From a virus: DNA of 64,000 nt. The stretch spans positions 1 to 64,000 of the IMG/VR virus record IMGVR_UViG_3300010399_000034. One strand, 5' to 3'. Positions 1 through 63,983 of the stretch are shown here, piece after piece. A model generated the notes under the pieces. That model saw only the letters and a program-made list of their open reading frames with translations. It did no database searches and was not told the DNA's origin. The position numbers and the translations under genes are program-made. Numbering within the stretch: position 1 is the stretch's first letter; every line of letters begins with the position of its first letter.

Positions 1-246
1 ACGTCGCTCACGACCGCATCGCGCCTCTGCGACCTGATCGATCAAGCGGACACCTCGCAGGGCAGCAACCCGTCGGTCCAGGGCGGTCCGTCGGCGTGGG
101 AGCTCGCGGCGGCGCGCTCCGAGCTCGCGCGACTCTACTCGCAGCAACAACAGCAAGCGCCTGCGGGGATGGACTGGACGAAGATCGCAATCGGCGCAGG
201 CATCCTCGGCGCCGTCGGTCTCGCGGCGTACGTCATCCTGAAGTGA
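1..246 (+). CDS. Partial (5'-truncated) protein with C-terminal membrane anchor
   Basis: Frame +1 open from base 1 to TGA 244-246, ending ...MDWTKIAIGAGILGAVGLAAYVILK*. Confidence 0.75.
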   Translation, partial: TSLTTASRLCDLIDQADTSQGSNPSVQGGPSAWELAAARSELARLYSQQQQQAPAGMDWTKIAIGAGILGAVGLAAYVILK

Positions 247-251
247 ACGAA

Positions 252-1799
252 ATGGTCATCCTGAACGGCGGTCTCGGTGATGCTTCCTCGTGCGCAGGTC
301 GTAGCTGGCCTGCGCCGTTCATTCAGAAGCGCGACATCAAGGCCTGTCGTCCGCTGATGACCTACTACAACGTTCCGTGCACTGCGGAGGTGATCGAGTG
401 TCTCCTCTTTCGCAAGGAGAAGTTCCTCGACAAGCAGCGCCAGCTCCGTGCGCTCTCGGGTCAACGGCCGGCGGGCGTCGATGAGCGAATGCGCTGGCTC
501 AAGTCGATGGCGTCGCTCATCGACGGCGCGCTCGATGACACGAACCTCCTGAACGTGTGGATGATCGGCGGGACGCCTCCGACCGACTACAACACGAAGG
601 CAGCGCTCGCGTCGCTCCCCGGCGATCTCTGGGCGAACGGCAATGCGTTCGTCAATACAATGCTGCGCTCGGCGGTCGACCGCGGCTATCCGTGCGTCAT
701 CTTCCCCGCCGGCTTCGGGTTCGTTGGCGACGAGCCTGCGGTAATGGGCGACGGCTCAGTTCGGCCGTTCGCCTACTTCCCGATGTACCACCGCGCGACG
801 GACTTCGTGCAGGACGTGCGCGGTCGTCCGCGTGCGCCGGTTGTCGTCACGCCCGGCACCTCCGGCGTGCGCGGTCTTCGCGGGCTCGGCTTCGGCGATG
901 GTCCTGGCGGCGCAGTCGATCCGCGCTCGTTGTCGCTCACCGCACGTGCTGCGGCGGGGACGGCTGGCGCCCCGGGAACAACGGCCGCGGTTCGTCGTGC
1001 GATGCAGACGAAGGGGTGGTTCCTCAACCCATTCTCGCTCGCACCGGAGATCCTCGCCGAGCATTTGCGACAACATCCTGGCACCGGCCTCGTCGTCGGA
1101 TCGATCCGCGTGCTGACTGACGCCGAGCGAACGTTCTGGACAAACCTCGGCGCGACGCCGCGCACCGACACCCGCGATGGTGTTCGCCAGGATGGCTGGA
1201 TGCAGCTCATGGTCCCCGCTGCGGGCGATATCATGGACTACTACGCGGCCGTCGCGCGCGACATCCAAGAGACCGCCTTCGAGGTCTTCGTGCTCTACGG
1301 CATGGAGAAGTGGGCGCAGAACCTGATGATCTGGGCGCAGAACGGCCGCGTGCAGATGCCCGTTCAGCAGTTCGTCGACACGATTCGCACGATCAACACT
1401 GCGCGTCTTCGCGCGACGTCGGGCGCATTCTTCGGCGTCTCGGCTGGGCTCGCTTCGGCAGTCAATCCGGTCGCAGGCGCCGTGATGCAGATCCTCGGCA
1501 CTGCTGCCGACGCGCTCGTCGCCGCTGTCGGTGCGGGTGTTGGCGGCTGGAACTGTCCGCTTCCGCTCACGCGTCGCAGCGCATCGGGCGACTGCGACTT
1601 CACGCACATCCTCGGGCCCGGCGCGCTTGAGCAGTCAGAGCGCCAGCGCGGCGGCATGGTGGAGTACTTCACGACGCCGCATCCCGCGCCGAGTGCGCCG
1701 TCGACGACGAGCTCGAGCAAGCCGTCGACTACGTTGATCCTCGGAGGCGTCGCGCTCGTCGCTGCCCTCGGCATCGGATACGTTCTACTCTCGGAGTGA
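252..1799 (+). CDS. Putative virion protein with C-terminal membrane anchor
   Basis: ATG 252 just after the previous stop; S/T linker then LILGGVALVAALGIGYVLL; GGLG and LRGLG motifs. Confidence 0.75.
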   Translation: MVILNGGLGDASSCAGRSWPAPFIQKRDIKACRPLMTYYNVPCTAEVIECLLFRKEKFLDKQRQLRALSGQRPAGVDERMRWLKSMASLIDGALDDTNLLNVWMIGGTPPTDYNTKAALASLPGDLWANGNAFVNTMLRSAVDRGYPCVIFPAGFGFVGDEPAVMGDGSVRPFAYFPMYHRATDFVQDVRGRPRAPVVVTPGTSGVRGLRGLGFGDGPGGAVDPRSLSLTARAAAGTAGAPGTTAAVRRAMQTKGWFLNPFSLAPEILAEHLRQHPGTGLVVGSIRVLTDAERTFWTNLGATPRTDTRDGVRQDGWMQLMVPAAGDIMDYYAAVARDIQETAFEVFVLYGMEKWAQNLMIWAQNGRVQMPVQQFVDTIRTINTARLRATSGAFFGVSAGLASAVNPVAGAVMQILGTAADALVAAVGAGVGGWNCPLPLTRRSASGDCDFTHILGPGALEQSERQRGGMVEYFTTPHPAPSAPSTTSSSKPSTTLILGGVALVAALGIGYVLLSE

Positions 1800-1802
1800 A
1801 AC

Positions 1803-2090
1803 ATGGCGATCATCTCGTTCGACGTTCGTGGTCTGGGTGACGTCAATATGACGATGCCAACGGTGCAGCTTACGTCGCAGGCGATGGCGGCACAGGTTGC
1901 AGCCATGCGCCGCGTCTCCGAGCAGAGCGGCCTACATCTCTACGAACGCCTCAACATCATGCCGCAGACGACCACGACGGCGGCAGGCTCGTTCATCGAT
2001 CAGTGGGGCATCCCGATCGCGGCCGGACTCGGCGCGTTCACGGTCGGCCTCGTAATCGCCAAGCTTGCAAGAAAGCGAAAGACGGCATGA
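1803..2090 (+). CDS. Small tail-anchored membrane protein
   Basis: VRGLGD near N-terminus; C-terminal TM followed by RKRK. Confidence 0.75.
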   Translation: MAIISFDVRGLGDVNMTMPTVQLTSQAMAAQVAAMRRVSEQSGLHLYERLNIMPQTTTTAAGSFIDQWGIPIAAGLGAFTVGLVIAKLARKRKTA

Positions 2091-2533
2091 CCCTCCCTAC
2101 GACGTACCATCCGGTCTATCAGGCAGCGACGCCCGACGTCGTGCGGCAGGAGATTCGCAATGCGGTGTACGAAGGTCGTGCTCCGCGCACCGCGCCAACG
2201 CGTGCCGAGCAGCAGACGACACAGGCGCAGACGCCGATGATCGCGCCGCTCGCGCAGCCGCGTATTCTCGCGACGGGCGCGGGGCGCGCTTCGCTCTTCG
2301 GGCCGGCTCAGGTTGGGATCATCCCGGGCAGCGGGCTCTCGCCGGCAGATCTTCCCGCAGGCAACACGTACGCGCAGCCGACTCCGGTCACGCCGTCGTC
2401 GCCGCTCAACGTCGTGCCGAACGGCACGCCGCTACAACAGGTCGCCGTTGTCGGTCGCAAGTACGCGCCATGGATTGCGGGCGCGATCGGGCTCGGCGCG
2501 GGGATCCTCGTCGCGCGTTTCATCTGGGGCTGA
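2087..2533 (+). CDS. Tail-anchored membrane protein
   Basis: ATGA overlap with previous gene; C-terminal WIAGAIGLGAGILVARFIW. Confidence 0.75.
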   Translation: MTLPTTYHPVYQAATPDVVRQEIRNAVYEGRAPRTAPTRAEQQTTQAQTPMIAPLAQPRILATGAGRASLFGPAQVGIIPGSGLSPADLPAGNTYAQPTPVTPSSPLNVVPNGTPLQQVAVVGRKYAPWIAGAIGLGAGILVARFIWG

Positions 2534-2617
2534 GCTCGAGCTCGCGCTGATCGGCAACCCGCGATCAATGGTTGCCTTCATCCAGAACGTGTAGGATAGT
2601 GTAGGTGCAGGTGGTAC

Positions 2618-2878
2618 ATGATCGTTGTGGAACAACGTAGTGCGACGTACGGACTCGGGGCGGCGCGATCGCCGACGATGGGTTGTCCCGGCGCGAAAAC
2701 GATCGTGCTGAACCGTGTTGCAGAGGCGGAGGGCGCTCGGCTCTCGGTCAGCAACGCGGGCACTGGCGCGGTCGGCGACGTCTTCTCGTCGGTTCCGACG
2801 TGGGCGTGGGTGGCGGGCGGTGCGCTCATCGCGGGGCTCGTCGCGGGCGCCGTCTACTTCAAGAAGCGAAAGGGCTGA
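2618..2878 (+). CDS. Small tail-anchored membrane protein
   Basis: YGLGA motif; C-terminal TM plus KKRKG. Confidence 0.75.
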   Translation: MIVVEQRSATYGLGAARSPTMGCPGAKTIVLNRVAEAEGARLSVSNAGTGAVGDVFSSVPTWAWVAGGALIAGLVAGAVYFKKRKG

Positions 2879-2881
2879 GCG

Positions 2882-3154
2882 ATGGCTCGCAAGAAGGTTC
2901 GTCGGAAGAAGACTGCGTGCGGCTCGCGCGGCCGCTTCAAGAGCGGCAAGCGCAAGGGACGTTGCCGCCCGAAGAAGGCGCACGCGAAGCGCGCACGTCG
3001 GAGTACGAAGACCAAGCGAGCGCGCCGTTTCTGCGTGCGCATCGCGGGCAAGAGGCGCTCGGTGAAGTGCTTCGCTTCGCAGAAGTCGGCAGCCCGCGCG
3101 ATGGGCAAGCTCTCCGCCGCTGGCGAGAACCCCGTCATGAAGATTCGCAAGTAA
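2882..3154 (+). CDS. Highly basic protamine-like protein (putative DNA-condensing core protein)
   Basis: 90 aa, very K/R-rich, paired Cys. Confidence 0.75.
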   Translation: MARKKVRRKKTACGSRGRFKSGKRKGRCRPKKAHAKRARRSTKTKRARRFCVRIAGKRRSVKCFASQKSAARAMGKLSAAGENPVMKIRK

Positions 3155-3166
3155 GGAGCGCAGCAG

Positions 3167-3268
3167 ATGGCTCGTCGTCGCAAGAAGAGCTCGTGCAAGT
3201 ACGGTCGGGTGAAGAGCGGACGTCGCAAGGGGCGTTGCAAGCTCCGCCGAGTCCGTCGTCGGAAGTGA
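3167..3268 (+). CDS. 33-aa protamine-like peptide (not in ORF track)
   Basis: AAGGAG RBS then MARRRKKSSCKYGRVKSGRRKGRCKLRRVRRRK*; similar to N-terminus of 2882-3154. Confidence 0.7.
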   Translation: MARRRKKSSCKYGRVKSGRRKGRCKLRRVRRRK

Positions 3269-3322
3269 TCGGTCAGGGTGACCTGGCTCTGTGAGGCGCT
3301 AGGGCGCCGGAGGAAGAAGACA

Positions 3323-3544
3323 ATGGCCAAGCGAAGGAAGCGCCGCGTGAAGCGTGCGAAGCGACGTTCGACCACCAAGCGCAAGTCGACTCGGCTGAAG
3401 GGCCGGCTCGTCTGCCCGAAGCGCTTCAAGGGCAAGAAGGTCCGTCGGCGCTCCGGCCACAAGGGCTGCTGGATCAAGCGCAAGGACGGCACGTTCCGCA
3501 TGATCAAGAAGGTCCGTCGCAAGGTCCGCCGGAAGAGGAAGTGA
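3323..3544 (+). CDS. Highly basic protamine-like protein
   Basis: GGAGG RBS; MAKRRKRR...VCPKRFKGKKVR... Confidence 0.75.
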   Translation: MAKRRKRRVKRAKRRSTTKRKSTRLKGRLVCPKRFKGKKVRRRSGHKGCWIKRKDGTFRMIKKVRRKVRRKRK

Positions 3545-3547
3545 TCC

Positions 3548-3757
3548 ATGGCGAAGCGTCGCAAGCGCGCGAAGAAGCGCAGCTCGAGTCGTGCGGTGTG
3601 CCCCAAGCGCTACAAGGGCGCGAAGGTGCGCAGCAAGAAGATGCGGGGTGGCACGCGCTGCTACATCGTTCGCAAGAGCGGGCAGTGGCGCTTCGTCCCC
3701 AAGAAGGGCGGCAAGTCCAAGAAGCGGGCGAAGTCGCGTCGGCGTAGCAAGCGCTGA
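3548..3757 (+). CDS. Highly basic protamine-like protein, paralog of 3323-3544
   Basis: MAKRRKR...VCPKRYKGAKVR... Confidence 0.75.
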   Translation: MAKRRKRAKKRSSSRAVCPKRYKGAKVRSKKMRGGTRCYIVRKSGQWRFVPKKGGKSKKRAKSRRRSKR

Positions 3758-3772
3758 TCGTAGGAGGGTCCG

Positions 3773-4486
3773 GTGCCCGATCCGATCACACAGAGCACGG
3801 CGAACGGCGAGTCCGTCACCCGTGCTCTTGCTTTCCTCGCTGCGAGCTACTTCGACCGGCTCGTCGCGGGAGATTGGGCGCGTGCGTCCGTTGTCCTCAA
3901 CGCGTTCTCGCAGGCGTACAACGTCCACCACGAAGCCTTCGTTGCGTACGCCGTGCGTCCAGGCGCAGACGCGTCGTGGCTGCCGGCGCGGATCGACGCG
4001 TTCTATACGCTCTCGACGCGCCGCGCTCTCGCAGCTGCGCTCGTCGTCGGTTTCGGAATCTCGTCGGCGATCGGCGAAGCGATGCCGGTCACTGTCGAGG
4101 TTGGCTCTGTCCGTCCGTGGTTCGAGCGCGTTCGTCCCGCGATCACTACGCCGGCTGATGCGTTCATGGACGCGATCGAACACGACTCGATGGGCACGCT
4201 CGGGACGAATATCATCTCGCGCGTCAACGGCATCCTCATGCGATCGACTGCCGAGGTCATCCGCGACGAACGCACGACGCCGTTCGATACGCCGCCTGCT
4301 GGGCCGGTGACGAACACAGACGCATCGCGAGGGCCGATCGTACAGGGTCCGTCGATCCTCGTGCATCCGACGCGCTTCGTCATGCCGACGTGGGGCTGGT
4401 GGGCGGTCGGGCTCGGCCTCGTCGCCGCTTCCGGTGTCGTGATCTACGGCGTCGTCGAGCGCGGATGGTTCGGGGGCAAGCGATGA
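3773..4486 (+). CDS. Tail-anchored membrane protein
   Basis: AGGAGG RBS, GTG start; C-terminal WWAVGLGLVAASGVVIYGVV. Confidence 0.75.
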   Translation: MPDPITQSTANGESVTRALAFLAASYFDRLVAGDWARASVVLNAFSQAYNVHHEAFVAYAVRPGADASWLPARIDAFYTLSTRRALAAALVVGFGISSAIGEAMPVTVEVGSVRPWFERVRPAITTPADAFMDAIEHDSMGTLGTNIISRVNGILMRSTAEVIRDERTTPFDTPPAGPVTNTDASRGPIVQGPSILVHPTRFVMPTWGWWAVGLGLVAASGVVIYGVVERGWFGGKR

Positions 4487-4629
4487 AGCGCCTCGCAAAG
4501 ACCTGTTACTACAAGGTCGCGGGCGTGAAGCGTCGCTTCAAGACGGCGCGTCGTGCAATGAAGGCGGCGCGTAAGCGCGGTCGCGGTGCTCGAGCGGTCA
4601 CTCAGGTGTGCCGTCTCGTTCTTGATTGA
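4483..4629 (+). CDS. Small basic protein
   Basis: ATGA overlap; MKRLAKTCYYKVAGVKRRFKTARRAM... Confidence 0.6.
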   Translation: MKRLAKTCYYKVAGVKRRFKTARRAMKAARKRGRGARAVTQVCRLVLD

Positions 4630-4646
4630 AAGGCTCGTGGCTCTCA

Positions 4647-5096
4647 ATGCGTGTCGTGACGATCGATGGTGGCTTCCGCGGACTCGGCGATGTTGCGCCG
4701 AGTGTTCGCAATGCTGCCGTCGCCGACTTCACGCGCGCCATCGCGCCGCTCGACGACATGCTCGAGCGCTACATCGCGTTTCGCGCGGCGGGCAACATCA
4801 GCGAGTCCGACGATCTGCGGATCATGGATCGCTATCATGTGCTCTCCGAGCGGATCGCGGCGCGTCTTCGTGACGCCGAAGGTCGGCTGAGCGAGAGCGC
4901 GATCGCGGCGTGGTCGAACGGCAATGCTGTCTACGTCAACGACGTGCGGCTCTGGATCAACGACGTCCGCCGCATCATGGGCGACGAGATCCAGAACCGC
5001 GGGCTTCGCACCTTCCTGATCGCGGCCGCTTCGATCACGGTGCTCGGCGGCGGCATGTACGTGATCTACCAGGCGACGAAGGGGAAGAAGCGATGA
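4647..5096 (+). CDS. Tail-anchored membrane protein
   Basis: FRGLGD near N-terminus; helical middle; C-terminal TM plus KGKKR. Confidence 0.75.
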   Translation: MRVVTIDGGFRGLGDVAPSVRNAAVADFTRAIAPLDDMLERYIAFRAAGNISESDDLRIMDRYHVLSERIAARLRDAEGRLSESAIAAWSNGNAVYVNDVRLWINDVRRIMGDEIQNRGLRTFLIAAASITVLGGGMYVIYQATKGKKR

Positions 5097-5866
5097 CCTA
5101 TCGTCAGCCGCATCCGTACGAGAGCATCGGGGACTTCGTTCCTGGCACCGTTGTTCGCTCCGACACGTATCTGCGCGGGCTCGGCTATCTTCCGGGACGC
5201 ACAGCAAATCGTCCCGTCGCGATCCCGCAGCTTGCAACGGGCCCGCGGCCGAGCGTGTTCTCGCGGCAGCCGTTTGCGCGTCCGGTTGCGATCCCGCAGC
5301 TCGCGCCGCGCGTCAACATCCGCGGCGTTGGCGGCAACGTTGTCGACTGCACATGCAGCCAGAACACGCTCGTGCGCCACGCGGCAGAGCATGCAGCGAT
5401 GCGGCAGGCGGGCGCGATGGGGCTCGGCGTGATCCCTGTCTGGTCGCGCGCCACGGTGATCCCGACGTGGTCGCCGTCATCTGTGATCCCAACGTGGCAG
5501 CCGCGTTCGTCGTACACGCTGCGCGGGCTCGGCGCGTGCGAGCCGGAGCTCGAAGCTGACATGCAGACGAACTGGAACCCAGGCGTTCGGTTCGGCACTG
5601 TTGGGGCGGGTACCGGTACTGGAAGCCCCGACGCTCTCTTTCGAGCCATGTTTTCGCGGCGGCAGTTTCCGACCGGAACGCCGAACCTTCATATGCAGTC
5701 GCCGATGTCTGCGATCGTGATGCGTGGACCGAACGACGATGCGGTTACCAGCTTCTTCATGCAGCCCGACGTGAAGCCGTGGTTGTACGTGGGCGGCACT
5801 GTCGGCGTGCTTGCTATCGTCGGCCTTATTTACTGGGCCGGAACGCGTCGTAAGCGACGCCGCTAG
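5093..5866 (+). CDS. Tail-anchored protein with internal repeats and several GLG motifs
   Basis: RPVAIPQLA x2, VIP(V/T)W x3, LRGLG x2; C-terminal TM plus RRKRRR. Confidence 0.75.
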   Translation: MTYRQPHPYESIGDFVPGTVVRSDTYLRGLGYLPGRTANRPVAIPQLATGPRPSVFSRQPFARPVAIPQLAPRVNIRGVGGNVVDCTCSQNTLVRHAAEHAAMRQAGAMGLGVIPVWSRATVIPTWSPSSVIPTWQPRSSYTLRGLGACEPELEADMQTNWNPGVRFGTVGAGTGTGSPDALFRAMFSRRQFPTGTPNLHMQSPMSAIVMRGPNDDAVTSFFMQPDVKPWLYVGGTVGVLAIVGLIYWAGTRRKRRR

Positions 5867-5879
5867 ATAAGAGCTTCGC

Positions 5880-5916
5880 TCTTCAAGAGCGAGAGCGGTT
5901 CTGCTCGTCTTGAAGA
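5880..5916 (+). terminator. Stem-loop after gene 5093-5866
   Basis: TCTTCAAGA...TCTTGAAGA inverted repeat; no clear U-tract. Confidence 0.4.
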
Positions 5917-5982
5917 TGTAGGTAAATGGGGTTGCATCTCGCACCGTGTAGGTGTTAGAACCACACTCAGGAGAAATCGATC

Positions 5983-6522
5983 ATGGCCAAGCGTAGGCGT
6001 CGTCGTCGGATTCGGATGCGCGGACTCGGGGCAATGGGTCCCGCGGCGCGCTCGCTCGTGCCGGTTGCAGCAGGCGGGATTCTTACCGCTGGCGTGACCC
6101 TCGGTCTTCGTGCGTTCCTACGGCCGGATCCGGGAACGTTGAGCGCGACGCTCTACCGCTTCGCTCCGTTGATCGGATCGGTCGCGGGGCTCGTCGGCGC
6201 GGGCGCCATGTACATGGTCGCCGGTCCGTCGGCGGGGCTCGCAGCGGGCCTCACCAGCGTCATCGGCGGCGGTGCGCTCTTCGGCGCGGAAGCGCTGAAT
6301 GCGGCGAAGCCCGGCGGTCTCCTCGCCGTCAGCGGCCCGACCGCGGCGCTTCCCGCGGGCGATGGCACCGCGGGCCTTCGTGCACTGCTCCCGCAGTACG
6401 GCACCGAAGGACTCGGCGCGATCGTCATGAGCCCTGTGGGCGACACCTACGGCGACAGCGTCAACGTCGCCGGGCTCGGCGCCGGCTACCGGCCCAACGC
6501 GTTCGGGAAGAACGCGTTCTGA
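5983..6522 (+). CDS. Multi-pass membrane protein with arginine-rich N-terminal leader
   Basis: AGGAG RBS; MAKRRRRRRIRMRGLG then 2-3 hydrophobic segments; further EGLG and AGLG. Confidence 0.75.
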   Translation: MAKRRRRRRIRMRGLGAMGPAARSLVPVAAGGILTAGVTLGLRAFLRPDPGTLSATLYRFAPLIGSVAGLVGAGAMYMVAGPSAGLAAGLTSVIGGGALFGAEALNAAKPGGLLAVSGPTAALPAGDGTAGLRALLPQYGTEGLGAIVMSPVGDTYGDSVNVAGLGAGYRPNAFGKNAF

Positions 6523-6609
6523 GTCTGGGCAGTCGGGTCGGCCGAGGACACACCACCGTTCAACTCCGACCCGCTGCTCCGGCACCACCAAGGACGACGA
6601 GAAACAACC

Positions 6610-7398: not shown

Positions 7399-8115
7399 AT
7401 GGCTCAGCTAGACAAGATCAGATTCGCAGACGGCCGCGTGCAACGGCCGGGCGACTGGACGGCCTCGCCGCTCTACTCGACGGTCGAGATCGACGACGCG
7501 GCAGCGCTTCCTCCTCTCGACGGCTTCTCCTACGGCAACGGTGGCGATGTGCCGGGCTCGGTCGGTCCGCGACAGAGCACGATTGTCGACACCAACATGG
7601 AAGGCCAGGGCTCGATCCTCGCCGAGAACGAAGAGCTTCTCCTCTTCGGCCTCTGCATCGAGCTTATCCAGATCACCGCCGCGACCACGACGAACTTCTT
7701 CACGTCGCAGGAAGCGTGGTGTCCGGACCCGCCGCTCGTCAGCGCGACGAACTGTCAGCGCATTCTTCGCGACACCTTGGTGCGGATGAAGATCGCCGCG
7801 ACCAAGGACTACCTCGCGGTCCCGCTCGGGTGGCTGCCAGGTGCGCGTGGTGTCGACCACACGTACGGCTCGGCGCGCTCGGTCGGCTCGACGTGGACCG
7901 AAGGCGTCTTCGTCGGCTACAACGGCGCGAACTACGAGGGGGCGCATCGTCTCTTCGCGACGCCGCACCAGGTCGCACCGGGCGAGCAGTTCATCGTGCG
8001 CCTCGAGTTCCCCTTCGGGACGATCTCGGGCCTCGAGTTCGGCCTCCCGGATACGAGTGCGCGCATCAAGGCGCGTATCTACCAACGCGGTCTTCGCCGC
8101 CGCCCGGTCGCGTGA
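7399..8115 (+). CDS. Putative capsid protein 2 (single jelly-roll-like), paralog family A
   Basis: KIRFADGR..DW..PLYST, TNMEGQG, PHQVAPGEQFIVRL, GLRRRP. Confidence 0.6.
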   Translation: MAQLDKIRFADGRVQRPGDWTASPLYSTVEIDDAAALPPLDGFSYGNGGDVPGSVGPRQSTIVDTNMEGQGSILAENEELLLFGLCIELIQITAATTTNFFTSQEAWCPDPPLVSATNCQRILRDTLVRMKIAATKDYLAVPLGWLPGARGVDHTYGSARSVGSTWTEGVFVGYNGANYEGAHRLFATPHQVAPGEQFIVRLEFPFGTISGLEFGLPDTSARIKARIYQRGLRRRPVA

Positions 8116-36569: not shown

Positions 36570-37448
36570 TCATGCGTCCCTCATCTTCTTCCGGACCTGC
36601 CGGAGTAGCTTTGCCGACTCGAGCGCGGCTGCTTCGTCGAGGTAGCCGTCGGTCGTCTCGGGCGAGTCGTGGTTCAAGATCTTCTGAACAGCGAACCTGT
36701 TACCAGAGATCATGCCTGCTTGCAATGCTACGGTGCGACGAAGCCGATGCAAATAGATTCTGTCCTCGATGCCCGCAGCGGCCGCGAGCTCGTGAAGCTT
36801 GCGCCGACAGGCCTGATACGCTGCGCCGTTCGCGGTCCAGTCGTCCGTCTTGCTGACGGCCGTGGCGACGAGCTGACCTTCGCCGAGGCGATCGCGCAGG
36901 CGCTTCCATTCCCGCTTGGCGCCGAGCACCGAATAGACGATCGGCTTACTCCCCTTCACCACGATCCGTGTGATCCCGTCCTCGCGTGCGAATCCGGCAT
37001 CGATGACCCCAGCGTCGGTCCGCAGCACGTCCGAGACGCGCAGAGCCGAGCTGCACATCACGTCGATCACCCGGCCGGCCGTCGTCTCGTCTGCCTCTAC
37101 GAGTCGAAGGAACGGCCTCCACAGCTCGATCGGGATGGACACGGCCTCCTTGAGCCGCTTGGGCTCCTTGCGCCTCTTCCTCTTGCGGTGCGACGCCGGC
37201 TCGGGCGGGAGCTCGGCGGGCGGTGGAAGCCTGTTCCGGCGCCCCTCAGATTCGCAGAAGTCGGCCCAGAGGGCCCACGCCCAGCGGTAGTCACGCAGGC
37301 GCTTGCGGAGCATTTGCGAGGCCGGCGGGCTCGTCCCGTGGTCGCGCATCGTCCTCACGTCGTTCGCAGCCTTCCGCGCCGAGGTGATCGCCAGCTTCTC
37401 GCGATCGATCATCCACGCACGAAAGCGGTCGAGTGCTTCGGCGTTCAC
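36570..37448 (-). CDS. Tyrosine recombinase/integrase
   Basis: Catalytic set R (LRVSD), K (VKGSK), HxxR (HRLRR), H (LNH), Y (TDGY); GTG start overlapping the upstream stop. Confidence 0.85.
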   Translation of the reverse strand: MNAEALDRFRAWMIDREKLAITSARKAANDVRTMRDHGTSPPASQMLRKRLRDYRWAWALWADFCESEGRRNRLPPPAELPPEPASHRKRKRRKEPKRLKEAVSIPIELWRPFLRLVEADETTAGRVIDVMCSSALRVSDVLRTDAGVIDAGFAREDGITRIVVKGSKPIVYSVLGAKREWKRLRDRLGEGQLVATAVSKTDDWTANGAAYQACRRKLHELAAAAGIEDRIYLHRLRRTVALQAGMISGNRFAVQKILNHDSPETTDGYLDEAAALESAKLLRQVRKKMRDA

Positions 37449-37936
37449 TTGGCCCTCGTGTATTCGTGGCCGCTCTCGGTGAGCTGCCAGATGCTTCCAC
37501 CGCGATACGCGCCAACGGAGAATGCGAGATCGCGACGTTTGAGCGCGTACAACGTCGCGTGGTGAAACGACCGCACCGATCCGCCGTGATCGATCGCGCG
37601 AAGGCACGCGAGCTGCACCTTGTTCAGGCGCCACTGGCGCGGGCGTGGACTCCGGATCTCGACGACGCGCTTGGTGATCGAAGGCCCCATGCAGCAAAGC
37701 CGAGCTCGGCCGAAGAACGAATCGTTCAGCGCGCACGTGCGGATCGCCGTCGCCGCGTTCTTCTGTTGCGCCCAAAGCAGCGCGCAGCGGACATGGAACG
37801 TCCAGCACCCGAGCTGCACCGGGTTGAATGCGAGCTTCTTACAGCGATCGCACGGCACCATCTTGCGGACTTCGTGCGATGTCTTCGGGCGATCGCATCG
37901 GCACGGCCCTTCTTTGATTTTGAGCTTGGGCATCAC
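37445..37936 (-). CDS. Cys-rich protein with C-terminal winged-helix-like segment
   Basis: CDRC..., LYALKRRDLA...WQLTESGHEY. Confidence 0.5.
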   Translation of the reverse strand: MMPKLKIKEGPCRCDRPKTSHEVRKMVPCDRCKKLAFNPVQLGCWTFHVRCALLWAQQKNAATAIRTCALNDSFFGRARLCCMGPSITKRVVEIRSPRPRQWRLNKVQLACLRAIDHGGSVRSFHHATLYALKRRDLAFSVGAYRGGSIWQLTESGHEYTRAK

Positions 37937-50731: not shown

Positions 50732-52216
50732 TCAGAGATGCGACTCGAGAATGTACGCAGTGATGTCGTCGACATCGCCAGGAGAGAGGATGAACGCCTC
50801 CCAGTTCGGATCGCCGAAGGCACGCAGTGCGAGCGCGACTTGTTCGCTGCCGACCGCCACCGCGTCGACCTGATCGTGCACGGTCGCTTCCACATTGTCG
50901 TGCAAGAAGCGCTGCCGATGCGAGACGCCGCGCAGGGTCGCGATCATGAACTGTGGAAGCGCAACGCCTGGCGACAAGCCGCACGAGGCGGGGACCTCGC
51001 CACACGGATCCCCGGTGCGCAGCGGACGCCCCGGATCATGCGCGTGGATAACGAACTCACCTGCGGGCGTCGCGAAGCGGTACGTGCGGAAGGGCAGCTC
51101 GGCCGTCGGTTGCAGCCCGCCCATCGCCGACGTGCGGTGAAGGCAGACTAGGCCGACGCCCGGGTAGTCGATAGGACCCTCCATGTCGACGTACGGCGCG
51201 CAGGTCCCGCTCGGACCAGGGGGCTGTCCGTTCGAACACGGGCATCCACCAGACGGGAGCGGCGGATACGGCGGCTGAAGCGGGTTGAACGGTGAAGTAC
51301 GCATCATCATCGGACCGCCGTGGCAGCTCGCGCAGAAGCCACGATGCGCCATGTCCGTGCTCAACATGGGTTGCTCGATCAAGAACTCGCGACCGCGCAG
51401 ACACGCTGCCGTCGCGTGCGGAGGGCACTCCGGCGGACCGGGCTCCGCGCCACCACGCGCCATCTCCGCGAGCTCGGGCGAGCTGAAGAGCGAACGCTGG
51501 AAGTTCGCGATGTCCGTTCGCTGCTGAGCGGTGAACGGGATCGTCGGCTGGAAGTGATCGTTGAGCGCGCTCCCAGCTTGATGCGCAAGCTCGAGCTCCC
51601 GCCCATCCCACATGATCCCGCCTCCGCGGTGATAGCCGAGCGGCGCGGTGCCGGGCTCCTTGAGCGCGACATTCAAGACGTGCGGTGAGGAGCGCCGTAC
51701 GATCACCTGGATACGGCCGTCGGGCAGCATGGTGATGTCGGGGTCGGTCCCGAGCTCGTCCACCGTAACGTTCGGCGGCAGGATGACCGGGATGCGGATG
51801 AGCGCGTGATCACGCAACACCGAGAAGTCGGCGCCCACGCCATCGTTCGAATCGATCGACCTGAAGAGTGGGTCCGTCGGGTCGACTGCAAAGACGGCTT
51901 GCGCAAACTCGTCGCTCAGATCGAACGTCGCGTGCTCCTGGACGAAGTGTGCCCCAGTCAACGCAGCGAGAAGCGGCGGCTGCCCTTCCATGATCCCGGT
52001 TCGATAACCGATGTTGAATGCACGCTCGACGGTCGTATGACACGACGCGCACGCGCGTCCATTCGTCCCGGGAGGCGAGTTATTGAAGAGCGCCCGTCCT
52101 CTCGCGATGCTCGCCAGCATCGACAGGTCGAGATCAGCCTCCGTACGATCGACAGGACCCGGATCCGCACAACCGCAAATCAACGCAGCTACTAGTGTCA
52201 ACAAGACTTGTCGCAT
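50732..52216 (-). CDS. Di-heme cytochrome c peroxidase/MauG-like lipoprotein
   Basis: LICGC lipobox; two CxxCH (ACASCH, FCASCH); MWDGR; TLRGV...FLHD. Confidence 0.8.
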   Translation of the reverse strand: MRQVLLTLVAALICGCADPGPVDRTEADLDLSMLASIARGRALFNNSPPGTNGRACASCHTTVERAFNIGYRTGIMEGQPPLLAALTGAHFVQEHATFDLSDEFAQAVFAVDPTDPLFRSIDSNDGVGADFSVLRDHALIRIPVILPPNVTVDELGTDPDITMLPDGRIQVIVRRSSPHVLNVALKEPGTAPLGYHRGGGIMWDGRELELAHQAGSALNDHFQPTIPFTAQQRTDIANFQRSLFSSPELAEMARGGAEPGPPECPPHATAACLRGREFLIEQPMLSTDMAHRGFCASCHGGPMMMRTSPFNPLQPPYPPLPSGGCPCSNGQPPGPSGTCAPYVDMEGPIDYPGVGLVCLHRTSAMGGLQPTAELPFRTYRFATPAGEFVIHAHDPGRPLRTGDPCGEVPASCGLSPGVALPQFMIATLRGVSHRQRFLHDNVEATVHDQVDAVAVGSEQVALALRAFGDPNWEAFILSPGDVDDITAYILESHL

Positions 52217-59676: not shown

Positions 59677-62526
59677 TCACACCGAATACCAGTCATCGCC
59701 GATCTTGGCGACGGCAGGAAATGGCATCGCATCTGCCCCAGGAACCAATGTTAGCTTCTGCGACATACAACGCTCGAGGAGCGCCGCGACCTTGTCGGCT
59801 TTGTGCTCGTCGCATTCAACGTAGATCGCGTCGTGGACCTGCGCGATGATGATCGCAGTCGGGTCGACGCTCGGAAGTTGATGCGCAAGTTCGAGCATCG
59901 AGAGGTTCATCATCGATGCGACCGTTGAGTTCTTGCTGATGATTCCTGCACTGTCGTAGCGGTGGAGGTCGTGCTGGACAGCAAGCGTGTACAAGTCTGC
60001 GCTTTCCTCGAGCTGACACACTGCCGCAACGGTCCCGGTCGAATAGAGCTCAGCGTCGCGCCAGTCACCAGCAGCCTCCGTCATACGCTGAAGCGTGTGC
60101 GGGTTCGTTGTACCGCCGTGCGCCAACCGAGACCAAAGCACGTACATGCTCCGCTCCGTGGCGTACGAGAACGGGTTTCGTGGGTAGGTTTCAAGAAACC
60201 GATCACGCGCGGCACGACCAAGACGATCATCACGACTGAAACGTTGTCGATCCGTTGGATCGCCGTAAGCGAGCTGGCTCCGCAGCAGGGAGCCAGCGAA
60301 GTTCAGCCGCCACGCCATGTGTCCATCGCGATCGGAGACATACGGTCCGTCGATACGCGAGGTCACGCCGCAACTTCGTGCGAGCAGTTGCAGGTCACGA
60401 AGCAGCTCTAGGTTCGGCGTGTTGGAAGACGGCTGCCCCATAGACAGCGTTCCGTCAGCGTCCATGTAGCCGAGAAGGAACGCTTTTCGCGCCGACAAGC
60501 AAGCACGCCAGATCGAATCTGGTACGCGTTTCGTCTTGGCACGCCAAGTCGGGTCAACCCCCCAGGAGGGGAGAAGCTGTCGAAGGCGACTATCTGCGGC
60601 CACGCTGATTGCCGTCAATGGTCCGTGAACCTGGGCCTTCCAGAGGCCGCCGTATTGTATCGCCCAGCGTGTAAAGGACGCAGCGTACTCGTCATGCGCG
60701 AAGCGTTTTACACGTGTACCGAAGCACCACACAAGTTGGTCTGTGGAGCCGGTTCGTTGCGACCACGACCCGTTTCCGATCCAATACCCGAGCCAGTACG
60801 CGTCGGCGTCATTGAAAGGGGCACCGAACTCCTGCGCTGAGGCAAGCGGCTGCGCAATACGGTCGCCTTCACGTAACTCTCCAACAGCGCGCCATTCGAA
60901 CTCGATTCCGTCGTCACGAAGCACGCGAAGATAGTGTTCTTCGTTCGTCTGAAGTACATGCCCGTTGGTGAGCTTCGTCTCCCATAGTTGCTCAGTCCGC
61001 TTTCCAAGCGTCATCGATGGAGCCCATTGATTTGGCGCGCCGAGCGACGCGGAGCACGTCGCATGTTCCACCGGGAGATAGCCTTCTGTTGTAAGAACGC
61101 GCGTCCCGCCTCGAACGCACTGCATCTTGTAGTTGTATACAACTGTCGCATCGATCAAGAGAAGCGGGAACTCGCGACGACGACCGATGAGCGCGTCGGT
61201 GACACGGCCAGTTCGCTTGGCTTCAGTGAGCTCGCGCTCGCGCCACGGCCGCACCGACGGGAACGCTTTGAAGATCGCGGCGAGGATCGTCTCGACCGTC
61301 GCGATGTCGATCGGCATGCCCTCGTAGCCGCCGTCGTAGATGGAGTTGAGGATCGTCTCCGACCCAGCGCCGTAGAAGCTGCCGTAGATGACGCGCTTCT
61401 CGAGATCGCGCAGCGCTGACCGCGTCTTGTCGTCGGCCTTGAGGTAGCCGTCCTTGAACGCGATCGCGCTCACGTACGCGTGTGGGTCGCAGTCGGGCTC
61501 GTACTTGCGCGCTTCGTCAGCGTTGACGCAGAGCGAGATGAGCTTCTCGTCGCCGCAGAGCGCACCGAGCACGCGAAGCTCAGCCTGTCCGAGGTCGGCG
61601 CCGACGATCTTGCGGCCCGGCGGCGCGACGATGCACTCGCGGATGCCGGGCACCTCGAGCGTGATCTTCCCTGGCTTCGCCTTCGCGAGGAAGATCTCGT
61701 CGCCAGGAAAGAGCGGAAGCTGCCATGGACCGCCGTGCGGTCGGCCCTTGCTGTCGAGTGCCTCGAAGATCGCAAGCATGAGAAGGATGCGCTTCCCCCA
61801 GTTCATTAGGTTCGGCTCGCTGCTCCATCTCCCGGTCCTCGCACCGAGCGGCTTCCAACGCACGCGGATGCGCCAGTCCTGCGAGACCGGCATCCCCTCG
61901 ATGTACGTCGACTTGATCTTCTCCCAGCGACGATAGTCAAGGAGCAGATCGACGAACGGATGACCCTTGTAAGAGAGCAACGACGATTTATCTGTCGATG
62001 GCTGCCCTTGTGGATGCGTCTTGCTCGGGTCGGTGTACTTCATCGGAAGCAGCCGACACGGCCCGTTCTTGTCGTAGAGCGCCCACGCGAGCTGCGGAGG
62101 ACTCGTAGGGCTAAAGTCTGGCCGACCCGTGAATGCACGCAGGAGCTCGACCGAACGCGCCATGTAGAAATCAGAACGCTGCGACCAGCGGATCCACCGT
62201 TCTCGACTCACTGGCAAGCCGGCGCGCTCGACGTCCTTCGCGACGTGGAACATCCCGACGTCGAGGTCATGGACGAAGCGTGCGTTCTCTGCTTCGAGCT
62301 CGGTGAGCTGCGAGAGCATGGAGAGCGTCGTATTGTAAACGTCGCGACCGTTGTAAGCGAAGAGCTGCTCGTTCGACTCCCAGACCTGCTGCCCGCCCTT
62401 CTCCTTCGGCGGCTTCCACGGCGGCGTGTCGGTGTAGCAGCCGGCGATGTGTTGCAAGCGATGAGGCTCGTCGGGATGAACGGCGTTGTGCGCGATCTCG
62501 GTGTCGTAGACGTAGCCGCGAGTCAT
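59677..62526 (-). CDS. polA: Family A DNA polymerase (C-terminal exonuclease half plus polymerase) containing an intein
   Basis: RTGRWSSEPNL, motif A ADLGQAELR, motif B R..EK..IYG..YG, motif C QVHDAI. Confidence 0.9.
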   Translation of the reverse strand: MTRGYVYDTEIAHNAVHPDEPHRLQHIAGCYTDTPPWKPPKEKGGQQVWESNEQLFAYNGRDVYNTTLSMLSQLTELEAENARFVHDLDVGMFHVAKDVERAGLPVSRERWIRWSQRSDFYMARSVELLRAFTGRPDFSPTSPPQLAWALYDKNGPCRLLPMKYTDPSKTHPQGQPSTDKSSLLSYKGHPFVDLLLDYRRWEKIKSTYIEGMPVSQDWRIRVRWKPLGARTGRWSSEPNLMNWGKRILLMLAIFEALDSKGRPHGGPWQLPLFPGDEIFLAKAKPGKITLEVPGIRECIVAPPGRKIVGADLGQAELRVLGALCGDEKLISLCVNADEARKYEPDCDPHAYVSAIAFKDGYLKADDKTRSALRDLEKRVIYGSFYGAGSETILNSIYDGGYEGMPIDIATVETILAAIFKAFPSVRPWRERELTEAKRTGRVTDALIGRRREFPLLLIDATVVYNYKMQCVRGGTRVLTTEGYLPVEHATCSASLGAPNQWAPSMTLGKRTEQLWETKLTNGHVLQTNEEHYLRVLRDDGIEFEWRAVGELREGDRIAQPLASAQEFGAPFNDADAYWLGYWIGNGSWSQRTGSTDQLVWCFGTRVKRFAHDEYAASFTRWAIQYGGLWKAQVHGPLTAISVAADSRLRQLLPSWGVDPTWRAKTKRVPDSIWRACLSARKAFLLGYMDADGTLSMGQPSSNTPNLELLRDLQLLARSCGVTSRIDGPYVSDRDGHMAWRLNFAGSLLRSQLAYGDPTDRQRFSRDDRLGRAARDRFLETYPRNPFSYATERSMYVLWSRLAHGGTTNPHTLQRMTEAAGDWRDAELYSTGTVAAVCQLEESADLYTLAVQHDLHRYDSAGIISKNSTVASMMNLSMLELAHQLPSVDPTAIIIAQVHDAIYVECDEHKADKVAALLERCMSQKLTLVPGADAMPFPAVAKIGDDWYSV
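59929..61119 (-). mobile_element. Intein with LAGLIDADG homing endonuclease in the DNA polymerase
   Basis: ...YKMQ|CVRGGTRVLTTEG...GIISKN|STV; AYWLGYWIGNG and AFLLGYMDADG; 397 aa. Confidence 0.9.
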
Positions 62527-63983
62527 GCGACACCCCACACGCTCTGTATGACCTGCGTGTCGTAAATCCCGTTTTGAAAACACTTCTTGAAGCGCTCGTC
62601 TTGCAACCAGCGAACGACTGTCTCGAGCAGCGGATCACCGCGCTTCATCCCGATCGTGTTGAGAACGACGGCCGCTTCGCGTTGCGTCCAGTCGACTGTC
62701 GGTCGTCCCTTGTGCAGCCCGATGCAACGAATCTCCGTGACGGTCCACGGATCCTTCGAGTCGGTCTCGATGTCGACCGACGTGAAGAGTGGCGGCGTTT
62801 CATCGCCGAAGAGGTAGCGTTCCAGAAACTCGAGTGAAGCCTTGTAAGCTTCGGTCTTGACCAACGGCGCCTGATACTCCTGACCCGTACGAGCGAGCTC
62901 CGCCTCGAGCCCACACTCCATGTGATCGGGAAGAACGATGTACTGGTACTCCCACTTCGCATCTTCGGTCAGGAGCCGTTGCGCCTTGCGCAGATGTGCG
63001 AGCGACGCGTTGATCATGAACTGCCCGGCGGCCGTCTTCTTCTCCTTGCCGTCTGGCTGCCGTAGAAGGAACGCTGGGTGGTACGTCGGGATCACGTACG
63101 CGCACGGGAGATCCACGCGCGCGAACTCGTCCATCTTCGCGTAGTCGGGCGCGTGCCGACCACGATAGAGCGCGCCTGCTGACGCCATCAGCTTGTGCTG
63201 CGTCTTCCAGAGCTGAAGCTCGACCTGCTGTGTCTTGCGCCCAGCACACGTCGGACAGCGCTTCTTGCGCTTCTCGATCGTAACGGTGTCGTATCGGTGA
63301 CTCCATGCCGGAGCCATTGTCCCGCCGCCCTCGATACGGTCTTCATTCAACGCGCGATCGCTCACGAGGCCAGCGCAGACAAAGTCAGACAGGCCAGCCG
63401 CGCGAGCAGAGACCTGCTGTCCGCACCACGCGTCCCAACCCGGCGGAAGAAGCTGTTCGCTCTTACACTGCGCGCACTTCCACCACGCGAGCGTCATCTC
63501 GCCATTGCACTGCGGGCAGTTGAGGGGCTTGCCGGCAGAGTCCTTGAAGAGCGGAACGCGCGCCGTCTTGGCGACGAAGCGTCCGGTAAGCGCGGAGAGC
63601 GCGCCAGCTCCGAGCGCGACGATGACGCGCGGCTGAAGCATCTCGATCTCGGCGAGAAGGCGAGGACGACACTTCGGGATCGCCGCTTCGACTTGGTCGT
63701 CCTTCGTACCATGCTCAGGGAGGCAAAGCTCAGCGTTGGAAACGTAACAATGTCGTCGCTCTATACCAACCATCGAAAGGAGCTTGTCGAGCAGACTGCC
63801 GGAGCGGCCAACGAAGGGCACTTTGAGTTGTGCCTCCTGGAGACCTGGTCCTTCGCCGACGAGCATCAGCCCGTTGAACTCGTCAGGGCGCTGCGAAAGG
63901 CAGATCGTACGATCGCGCCGACCGACGAGCGGACAGCCCGCACAATCAGCGATCCGATGGTCGTACACGTACTGATACGCCAT
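62523..63983 (-). CDS. Uracil-DNA glycosylase family 4-like domain with Zn-ribbon insertion fused to N-terminal half of 3'-5' exonuclease
   Basis: CAGC, LVGEGPG..E....PFVGRSG, PTYHPAFLLR; then VDIETD (ExoI) and FQNGIYD (ExoII). Confidence 0.85.
   Translation of the reverse strand: MAYQYVYDHRIADCAGCPLVGRRDRTICLSQRPDEFNGLMLVGEGPGLQEAQLKVPFVGRSGSLLDKLLSMVGIERRHCYVSNAELCLPEHGTKDDQVEAAIPKCRPRLLAEIEMLQPRVIVALGAGALSALTGRFVAKTARVPLFKDSAGKPLNCPQCNGEMTLAWWKCAQCKSEQLLPPGWDAWCGQQVSARAAGLSDFVCAGLVSDRALNEDRIEGGGTMAPAWSHRYDTVTIEKRKKRCPTCAGRKTQQVELQLWKTQHKLMASAGALYRGRHAPDYAKMDEFARVDLPCAYVIPTYHPAFLLRQPDGKEKKTAAGQFMINASLAHLRKAQRLLTEDAKWEYQYIVLPDHMECGLEAELARTGQEYQAPLVKTEAYKASLEFLERYLFGDETPPLFTSVDIETDSKDPWTVTEIRCIGLHKGRPTVDWTQREAAVVLNTIGMKRGDPLLETVVRWLQDERFKKCFQNGIYDTQVIQSVWGVA

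Follow-up and report, generated by a model that had tools for sequence, protein, structure and literature searches.

The present work concerns a cluster of five short, highly basic open reading frames (ORFs), here named A to E, in the IMG/VR virus record IMGVR_UViG_3300010399_000034. The record, from an uncultured soil virus, is an 86,806-bp contig of 65% GC, and the window, by which the whole stretch of DNA that was analyzed is meant, comprises its first 64 kb (positions 1 to 64,000). An initial annotation, made from the DNA letters, had singled out the five ORFs as extremely rich in lysine and arginine; the frames are indeed open, all on the + strand, and code for proteins that contain 35–58% Lys plus Arg (K+R; Table 1). 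The two residues contribute about equally, Arg accounting for 0.21–0.36 and Lys for 0.15–0.26 of the residues. Since frames rich in Arg only are frequent off-frame artefacts at 65% GC, Lys is the discriminating residue. Among the 1104 ORFs of at least 25 amino acids in the whole genome, the four most Lys-rich (0.20–0.25) are A to D, which are adjacent to one another, and the next in rank reaches 0.15. One set of the five proteins carries a total charge of +143.

Table 1. Coordinates of the basic ORFs and of other features discussed in the text
Feature	Coordinates	Strand	Length (amino acids)	K+R	Net charge	Cys	Remarks
Gene A	2882-3154	+	90	0.41	+36	4	
Gene B	3167-3268	+	33	0.58	+19	2	
Gene C	3323-3544	+	73	0.55	+39	2	
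Gene D	3548-3757	+	69	0.48	+33	2	
ORF E	4483-4629	+	48	0.35	+16	2	
Tail-anchored membrane protein	3773-4486	+					Synteny anchor; C-terminal hydrophobic run and basic tail
Arg-rich leader	5983-6030	+	16				Ten Arg/Lys; ends in RGLG; on hydrophobic protein 5983-6522
Antisense shadow ORF	2854-3606	-	250				Arg/Phe-rich; wobble positions and third-position GC content common with A-D
Family-A DNA polymerase	59677-62583	-					LAGLIDADG-type domain within the reading frame

Coding evidence for the basic genes

That the genes are real and their families conserved is regarded as nearly certain. Every one of A to E begins with ATG, and B, C and D are preceded by good ribosome-binding sites; the strong site that the initial annotation had reported for B is AAGGAG, located 8 nt upstream of the gene. 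The N-terminus reads Met-Ala-Lys/Arg in four of the five proteins and in most of their relatives. In the case of C, the longest frame starts from GTG at 3278, and the ATG at 3323 has a GGAGGA site and matches the Met start of its database homologue P0006. Gene calls from independent assemblies likewise begin at the same Met (P0002–P0004, P0006, P0008, P0009 and others). The GC content at third codon positions (GC3) is 0.82–0.89 for A, C and D, with the caveat that it is 0.68 for B and 0.65 for E. The contigs of three DNA runs revealed only a near-identical strain, in another soil run; the differences seen within D are at positions 3604 and 3649 only, both of them third-position, synonymous changes, and A to C and E are covered partially or not at all in that run. 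No RNA run listed covers 2600–6600. The ESM Atlas contains A and D letter for letter.

An alternative, in which A to E are not genes and arise as a by-product of a gene on the opposite strand (2854–3606) or of base composition, has to be weighed at this point and is considered extremely unlikely. The antisense frame is long, has an equal GC3, and was preferred over A to D by a crude GC3-based gene picker; in addition, a word-based homologue search with A matched none of 16 candidates, A itself included. The third positions are common to the sense and antisense frames, and thus neither GC3 nor codon bias separates the strands. The antisense frame of 2854–3606 converts Lys codons to Phe and retains Arg. 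Of the 20 basic ORFs compared (from 7 loci), 12 have its equivalent interrupted, and the sense frames are everywhere delimited by their own stops. The antisense frame read codon for codon is open in 18 of the 20, as expected at this GC3, since TTA, CTA and TCA codons are avoided. As this codon-for-codon frame is mostly open, the frames alone do not decide the strand, which is decided by starts, ribosome-binding sites, homologues and folds: A to E have the ATG starts, ribosome-binding sites and N-termini described above, paralogy and homology are seen in the sense frame, and the sense translations fold confidently. As its frame is interrupted in 12 of the 20 equivalents, and homology and folds belong to the sense frame, 2854–3606(-) is rejected as a true gene. 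Two long shadow ORFs, 2854–3606(-) and 3299–4498(-), lie over the basic genes and are a likely source of mis-annotation.

ORF E is a possible gene with weaker coding support. In its favor, the start codon and the stop of the preceding gene overlap (ATGA), and without E the 160 nt before the next gene would be empty. None of the basic proteins tested is significantly similar to it (z <=1.0), and no positional equivalent was found in three related virus loci, L008, L013 and L021.

Modules, predicted folds and cysteine pairs

The genes had been proposed to fall into the paralogous pairs 2882/3167 and 3323/3548, and both pairs were recovered when local alignment scores were compared with those of 1000 composition-preserving shuffles (z=6.7 for A versus B and z=9.4 for C versus D, with 0 of 1000 shuffles reaching the score for each pair). 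By the same test there is no similarity between A or B and C or D, and E is an orphan. A hairpin between B and C (3262–3330) is unremarkable (z = -1.17).

The proteins are built of three kinds of Cys-bracketed unit, designated M1, M2 and M3, which are joined to variable Lys/Arg tails. M1 is a basic, Gly-rich loop of about 15 residues between two Cys (Cys-x14-Cys in A). It occurs at the N-terminus of A, as a stand-alone copy in B, and in the related loci L011 (269–370, 33 amino acids), L018 (7582–7827, two in tandem) and L017. M2 starts with Cys-Pro, ends with Cys-aromatic-Ile/Val and is followed by a Gly-x-aromatic-Arg-Phe-Val strand. It is present in C and D, in the database proteins P0002–P0010 and P0013–P0023, and in two genes of L001; a shorter variant is found in L011 (392–520) and in the N-terminal halves of P0007, P0014, P0015 and P0020. 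M3 consists of aromatic-Cys ... Cys-aromatic strands followed by a helix, and makes up the C-terminal half of A (residues ~48–90). It also appears in syntenic proteins of ~100 amino acids in L008, L013 and L020, and in L014/L010, L007 and L021, all of which start with a Cys-Gly-Cys motif. The shuffle test lends modest support to the relationship between A and the syntenic M3 proteins (z 1.7–3.2; 3.2 for L014 and 2.7 for L007). In one basic protein of the set, L021 7597–7827, a long repeat of the Ala-Lys-Lys type precedes the Cys-bracketed module, and we take this repeat to resemble the tails of bacterial histone-H1-like proteins.

Among database proteins, C is 96% identical to P0006 and 49% identical to P0007. 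The close homologues of D (P0002–P0005) have a nearly invariant core and tails that vary in sequence and retain their charge. An exhaustive search of 1.84 billion representative proteins with a profile of C and D gave 18 matches at E<=0.001, 16 of which are small (36–150 amino acids) basic proteins, several of them with two modules; the remaining two, P0011 and P0012 (1737 and 2014 amino acids), match in four short stretches each and are taken as low-complexity. In P0005 and P0022, two database homologues of D, the usual Met-Ala-Lys is preceded by ~40 further residues, alike in the two proteins, which are not basic and include Cys. The occurrence of this extension in two independent assemblies suggests that an upstream element is conserved or that the start was miscalled. 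Neither Pfam nor PHROGs yielded a match at E<=0.01 for A to E. At E<=10 Pfam gave none for A, B, D and E, and for C only Prok-E2_E, whose E of 0.049 falls short of the cut-off. A tblastn search of 50,697 GenBank phage records with D and with the neighboring capsid-like protein found no match.

Structure prediction provides a further view of these modules. The AlphaFold2 model of D, based on a 10-row alignment, has a mean predicted local distance difference test score (pLDDT) of 72.8, rising to about 88 over residues 21–50, and shows three antiparallel strands (25–32, 35–41 and 47–50) with low-confidence tails. For A, with an 8-row alignment, the N-terminal half is of low confidence and residues 51–90 have pLDDT block means of 87–94; residues ~48–90 are modeled as a beta-beta-alpha-beta unit (strands 50–54 and 60–64, helix 67–79, strand 84–88). 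In this model Cys51 would lie opposite Cys63 on paired strands, judging by the register assigned by DSSP.

Comparison of these models with known structures gave few leads. The best Foldseek match of the D model in the PDB had an E of 0.41, and among the 48,161 chains compared by VIA-align a single one reached Z>=2, namely a topoisomerase I C-terminal domain that is zinc-ribbon-like (Z 2.1, root-mean-square deviation 3.1, 39 residues aligned). The A model had no Foldseek match at E<=0.001 (best E 1.2). Its residues 48–90 were aligned by VIA-align with a gyrase subdomain (Z 4.5), ClpS (4.3) and the SPOR domain of CwlC (4.0), among many tied rows. Against the ESM Atlas, A reached a template modeling (TM) score of 0.51 with a cluster that has DUF2188 in 16% of its members, with no Pfam match, and the best feature scores in that resource, 0.78 and 0.79, are below a level that shuffled proteins also reach. 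The M2 profile, when compared with PDB sequences, gave E-values of 0.053 and 0.17 for ribosomal protein bL36, which is non-significant and serves as a lead rather than a match.

The initial annotation had called the five proteins protamine-like. The ORFs are supported as genuine, conserved genes, E less so; a simply protamine-like nature does not fit, given that Lys is about equal to Arg and that folded mini-domains are predicted. According to the models, A and D would be tiny folded units with polycationic tails rather than plain protamine-like coils, and the three modules may represent new, very compact folds with an affinity for nucleic acids.

The pairing of cysteines, which had also been noted at the outset, holds for each of A to E and throughout the family, the Cys count being even in 21 of 24 locus-derived and in 17 of 17 database proteins. 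The database count leaves out P0001 and P0006 (the window's own proteins or near-identical ones), P0005, P0022, P0011 and P0012. Cys makes up 4.5% of the residues in the basic proteins, as against 1.95% in a crude gene set. The residues are arranged as intramodule pairs, 8–20 residues apart, a spacing that suggests hairpin staples rather than intermolecular cross-links. A zinc site common to two modules is possible; a complex prediction for a homodimer of the D core with Zn gave a score of 0.01, which counts neither way.

Genomic setting and synteny

The genome bears an exact 123-bp direct repeat at both ends and is thus complete; IMG/VR classes the record as a virus with direct terminal repeats. 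Shine-Dalgarno sites and overlapping start and stop codons point to a bacterial virus, and an origin as a eukaryotic virus is rejected in view of these features together with the genes for an integrase (36570–37808), ParB and a Sak4-type ATPase. Over the first 18 kb the genes share one orientation, on the + strand. There the basic ORFs are accompanied, in the same orientation, by seven tail-anchored membrane proteins (96–5866) and by capsid-like paralogues. Between 1700 and 6700 no promoter-like site and no + strand terminator-like site were found, the sole terminator-like site being on the - strand. By these sequence signals the basic genes would belong to the same transcription unit as the structural genes.

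The relatives used for comparison were recruited with the neighboring membrane protein and the capsid-like gene, and are uncultured virus contigs of 35–69 kb together with several fragments. Loci with at least about 1 kb of flank upstream of the capsid-like gene were considered informative. These number 11 (the window, L001, L007, L008, L011, L013, L014/L010, L017, L018, L020 and L021), and in L003, L004, L005, L009, L012 and L022 the upstream stretch is too short for an assessment. L023, with 37% GC and a partial match at E 1e-4, looks unrelated. A search for syntenic homologues in related contigs had been proposed as a check on the cluster, and its outcome is positive: each informative locus (11 of 11) has at least one Lys-rich, Cys-paired, high-GC3 ORF upstream of the capsid-like gene, at a distance of no more than ~3.5 kb. 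The recurrent order is one or more basic genes, a homologue of the 3773–4486 protein (27–30% identity in L001), other tail-anchored proteins, a homologue of the 5983 protein, and two to three capsid-like paralogues. In seven loci (the window, L001, L008, L013, L014, L017 and L021) the basic ORFs stand directly before the 3773–4486 homologue. The basic genes sit between membrane and capsid-like genes, and those for replication and early functions are on the opposite strand. Relatives vary in how many modules they have and of which kind.

One pair of relatives shows how sharply a basic gene may differ. The flanking genes of L008 and L013 are 93–100% identical in nucleotide sequence (93% for the 4500–6791 gene, 97–100% for the others), whereas a basic, four-Cys gene of 57 amino acids found at 7548–7721 in both is 61% identical when compared without gaps and agrees in about two thirds of its residues after one gap. 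The central 35 residues are largely replaced, and the four Cys, their spacing, the charge and identical termini are kept. The pattern suggests either cassette exchange or diversifying selection.

Returning to the membrane proteins, all seven consecutive + strand products (96–5866) end in a hydrophobic run, which in most of them is followed by a short Lys/Arg tail. The Arg-rich leader ending in GLG that had been described for the 5983 gene is present, its last residues being RGLG. A basic leader ending in R/K-G-(L/F/M)-G occurs in most of the homologues of the 5983 protein recovered (L001, L003, L007, L008, L009, L011, L014, L017, L018 and L021). A similar leader, with GLGD, is carried by the 4647 protein and its counterpart in L008, as well as by the large basic Cys proteins that L008, L013 and L014 encode. 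Judged by its sequence, this leader looks like a processing or docking signal. A to E themselves have no G-L-G motif, and the complete genome gave no match at E<=1 to the adenain-like Peptidase_C5 or to Peptidase_C48 (Ulp-type).

A six-frame translation of the genome gave no match at E<=1 to Pox_A32, FtsK_SpoIIIE, Terminase_6N, TerL_ATPase or the HK97 capsid family. Only two ORFs with a genuine Walker-A motif are present genome-wide, a Sak4-like AAA_24 ATPase and a DUF3987 primase-type protein, both of which belong to replication or recombination. The genome further codes for glycosyltransferases, a UDP-glucose dehydrogenase and a family-A DNA polymerase, whose LAGLIDADG-type domain is probably an intein or a homing endonuclease insertion. 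In an additional 494-amino-acid protein, 50732–52216 on the - strand, motifs of di-haem cytochrome c peroxidase and of cytochrome c are weakly discernible, which is odd for a virus, and the N-terminus resembles a lipoprotein signal. With respect to the host, the related 68,397-bp contig L017 was binned in a metagenome-assembled genome of an uncultured member of the Myxococcales, a weak hint, as binning follows composition.

Possible role and comparison with known systems

The genes are real, conserved, modular and, by prediction, folded; they lie in the structural block of a genome without a recognizable packaging ATPase, and the products of all five ORFs are strongly cationic (+16 to +39 each) and encoded with late or structural genes. 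That A to D are core proteins located inside the virion, where they would neutralize the DNA, is given an even chance; their place in the virion, the binding and condensation of DNA, the sequence of assembly events and the redox chemistry are points that we infer. In such a scheme the bacterial virus would be tailless and contain a membrane, and A to D, and less surely E, would be structural proteins abundant in its interior, where they bind the double-stranded DNA (dsDNA) genome with no sequence preference and neutralize its charge. The small rigid core, a beta-hairpin or mini-sheet bracketed by two Cys, could offer a surface for contact with DNA or with other copies, and the disordered Lys/Arg tails would provide the charge. 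The genome would be compacted into a nucleoprotein, and the particle would be built around or onto it with no packaging motor pumping DNA in: first the membrane proteins, which bring basic C-terminal tails and, in the 5983 protein, the Arg-rich leader, and next the shell of the capsid. After release to oxidizing surroundings, the cross-strand Cys pairs might close as disulfides and stiffen the core.

The lack of a recognizable DNA-packaging motor makes a protein-condensed genome a reasonable model, and together with the basic tails on the membrane proteins it makes a condense-then-wrap assembly plausible. The charge arithmetic can also be followed: ~600 sets of A to E would neutralize half of the ~173,000 phosphates of the genome, and ~1,100 sets would neutralize 90%, the level that is needed for dense packing according to PMC3281028. 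These numbers are of the same order as the copy number of adenovirus protein VII, for which PMC7998265 states 500–800 copies per virion. The scenario may be extended to a lineage of 87-kb bacterial dsDNA viruses that lacks an ATP-driven motor, in which fast-evolving, polycationic Cys-hairpin proteins collapse the genome, a protein-studded membrane and a jelly-roll shell then wrap it, and Cys oxidation on release locks the core; in this full form the proposal is considered less likely than not.

Several observations weigh against this interpretation. ORF E appears doubtful as a gene and a member of neither family, so far as its sequence tells. The modules have two Cys each, 13–19 residues apart, and show neither a CxxC knuckle nor a conserved second ligand or His, which does not make up a classical Zn site in a single module. 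The bacterial cytoplasm is reducing, and disulfides could therefore form only after release; a search of the genome found no virus-encoded thiol oxidase of the Erv1/Alr type, thioredoxin or glutaredoxin. The absence of a motor is read from sequence profiles and the Walker-A pattern, and a divergent or host-supplied motor is possible. Similarly, the neighboring genes are assigned to the shell by synteny and should be regarded as putative shell genes. Lastly, the local hypervariability seen between L008 and L013 would be more typical of a host-interface or anti-defense protein than of a bulk polycation, and may suit an escort function, or one at the host interface, no less than a bulk structural function.

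This last point leads to the alternative that A to D are packaged on the DNA in modest numbers and enter the host with it, as escort or pilot proteins that protect the DNA against nucleases or host defenses, or tether it to the viral membrane while it is delivered, and are not the main condenser. Such a role would involve the same gene placement and the same DNA-affine composition as a core protein. The sharp divergence of the four-Cys gene, with Cys and charge retained, would suit a protein engaged in an arms race, and the differences in module number and kind among relatives also speak for it. The total charge of +143 and the tandem amplification of the genes, on the other hand, suggest mass amounts and not a few pilots, and Pfam and PHROGs show no similarity to an anti-defense or ejection family, PADLOC not having been searched. 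An escort role is considered rather unlikely.

The proteins might instead act outside the virion, as nucleic-acid binders made late in infection for compaction or shut-off of the host nucleoid, for RNA chaperoning, or as ribosome-associated mini-proteins. The best PDB sequence matches of the C/D core profile (bL36) and the single VIA-align match of the D model (the topoisomerase I domain) point in this direction, and basic mini-proteins of that style bind cellular RNA and DNA; both matches are, however, below significance. The genes are embedded among membrane and capsid-like genes and not among the replication and early genes on the other strand, and their synteny with structural genes is kept in every relative seen. 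A function of this type is deemed unlikely.

It is very unlikely that the products act on membranes as cationic hairpins of the antimicrobial-peptide type and aid envelope crossing or lysis: several membrane-active peptides are Cys-bracketed cationic beta-hairpins, and the genes are placed among those of membrane proteins, but A to E have no signal peptide and no hydrophobic face, start with Met-Ala-Lys/Arg runs, contain 35–58% K+R with few hydrophobic and only 1–3 aromatic residues per module, and carry long polybasic tails that are typical of nucleic-acid binders.

If A to D are core proteins, the question arises as to which known systems they resemble. No significant match, by sequence or by fold, places the proteins A to E in any Pfam, PHROG or PDB family tested, and a search of the open-access literature, made by keyword only, revealed no described bacterial virus with protamine-like core proteins. 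Among cellular proteins, bL36 and the zinc-ribbon mini-sheets share with the D core, as predicted, a tiny, basic, three-stranded antiparallel sheet of a kind that binds nucleic acid, and the local sequence likeness to bL36, in non-significant matches, lies around the second Cys and the hairpin that follows. Unlike bL36, A to D are viral, multi-copy and furnished with polybasic tails, and they lack the two knuckles (CxxC or CxxH type) with four metal ligands that mark a zinc ribbon.

In mammalian protamines, Cys residues cross-link the condensate, and true protamines consist of well over half Arg. The protamines, the baculovirus protein P6.9 and the basic proteins of African swine fever virus and ascoviruses resemble A to E in their small size, very high charge and proposed role in DNA neutralization. 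The proteins described here are not dominated by Arg as protamines are, have no Pfam membership in the curated protamine families, and contain predicted folded mini-domains. In PMC3281028, the adenovirus, asfarvirus and baculovirus proteins are grouped as arginine-rich and protamine-like. The same source holds that phage DNA is in general packed near-naked by a motor, with cations and polyamines neutralizing it and basic proteins playing a minor part. Double-jelly-roll viruses without a packaging ATPase are treated as exceptional by Yutin et al. (2018, PMC5894146), and there they are seen, and motor-less assembly is discussed, for small genomes only. A genome core made with basic proteins is familiar, and what would be new are the undescribed modules, the unexpected host domain and the genome size. 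Their small size puts A to D within reach of synthesis, so that their binding to DNA, its condensation and any dependence on redox state or metals can be tested directly.

The adenovirus proteins VII, V and Mu (pX) offer one close parallel, as they too are small, highly basic and encoded with late structural genes, in a non-tailed icosahedral dsDNA virus. Proteins VII and Mu, at 500–800 and 100–300 copies, are described in PMC7998265 as non-specific DNA condensers, and the (M/L/F)-R-G-L-G type of leader motif on some structural proteins of the present lineage resembles the adenain consensus given in that source. Adenain-type proteases (clan CE) process the adenovirus core proteins at (M/I/L)XGX-G sites. 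The differences are also clear: A to E have no Pfam match to the adenovirus core families at E<=10, and A to D have Cys-bracketed folded cores, by prediction, and belong to a bacterial virus in which no adenain-like protease was detected, nor a packaging ATPase, which adenovirus has in IVa2.

Another parallel is provided by the portoglobovirus Sulfolobus polyhedral virus 1 (SPV1), whose icosahedral shell encloses a lipid layer and a genome complexed with viral protein as a nucleoprotein core; for these archaeal viruses a condense-then-wrap assembly is described in the ICTV profile (PMC8459092). The likeness to its VP1 lies in a protein-complexed genome under lipid and shell, an arrangement that in the present case is proposed from the genes. 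Portogloboviruses have an archaeal, hyperthermophilic host, a circular genome of 20 kb and a VP1 that orders A-form DNA in a filament, whereas the present virus has a genome ~4 times larger than that of the Portogloboviridae and is apparently bacterial. If the proposed role is true, the nucleoprotein-core strategy, of which adenoviruses, baculoviruses, giant viruses and a single family of archaeal viruses are the examples known to date, would extend to bacterial viruses and to a genome size (87 kb) at which assembly around DNA is unexpected. The basic proteins would then constitute, with undescribed protein families, a bacterial counterpart of the nucleoprotein cores of adenoviruses and portogloboviruses.

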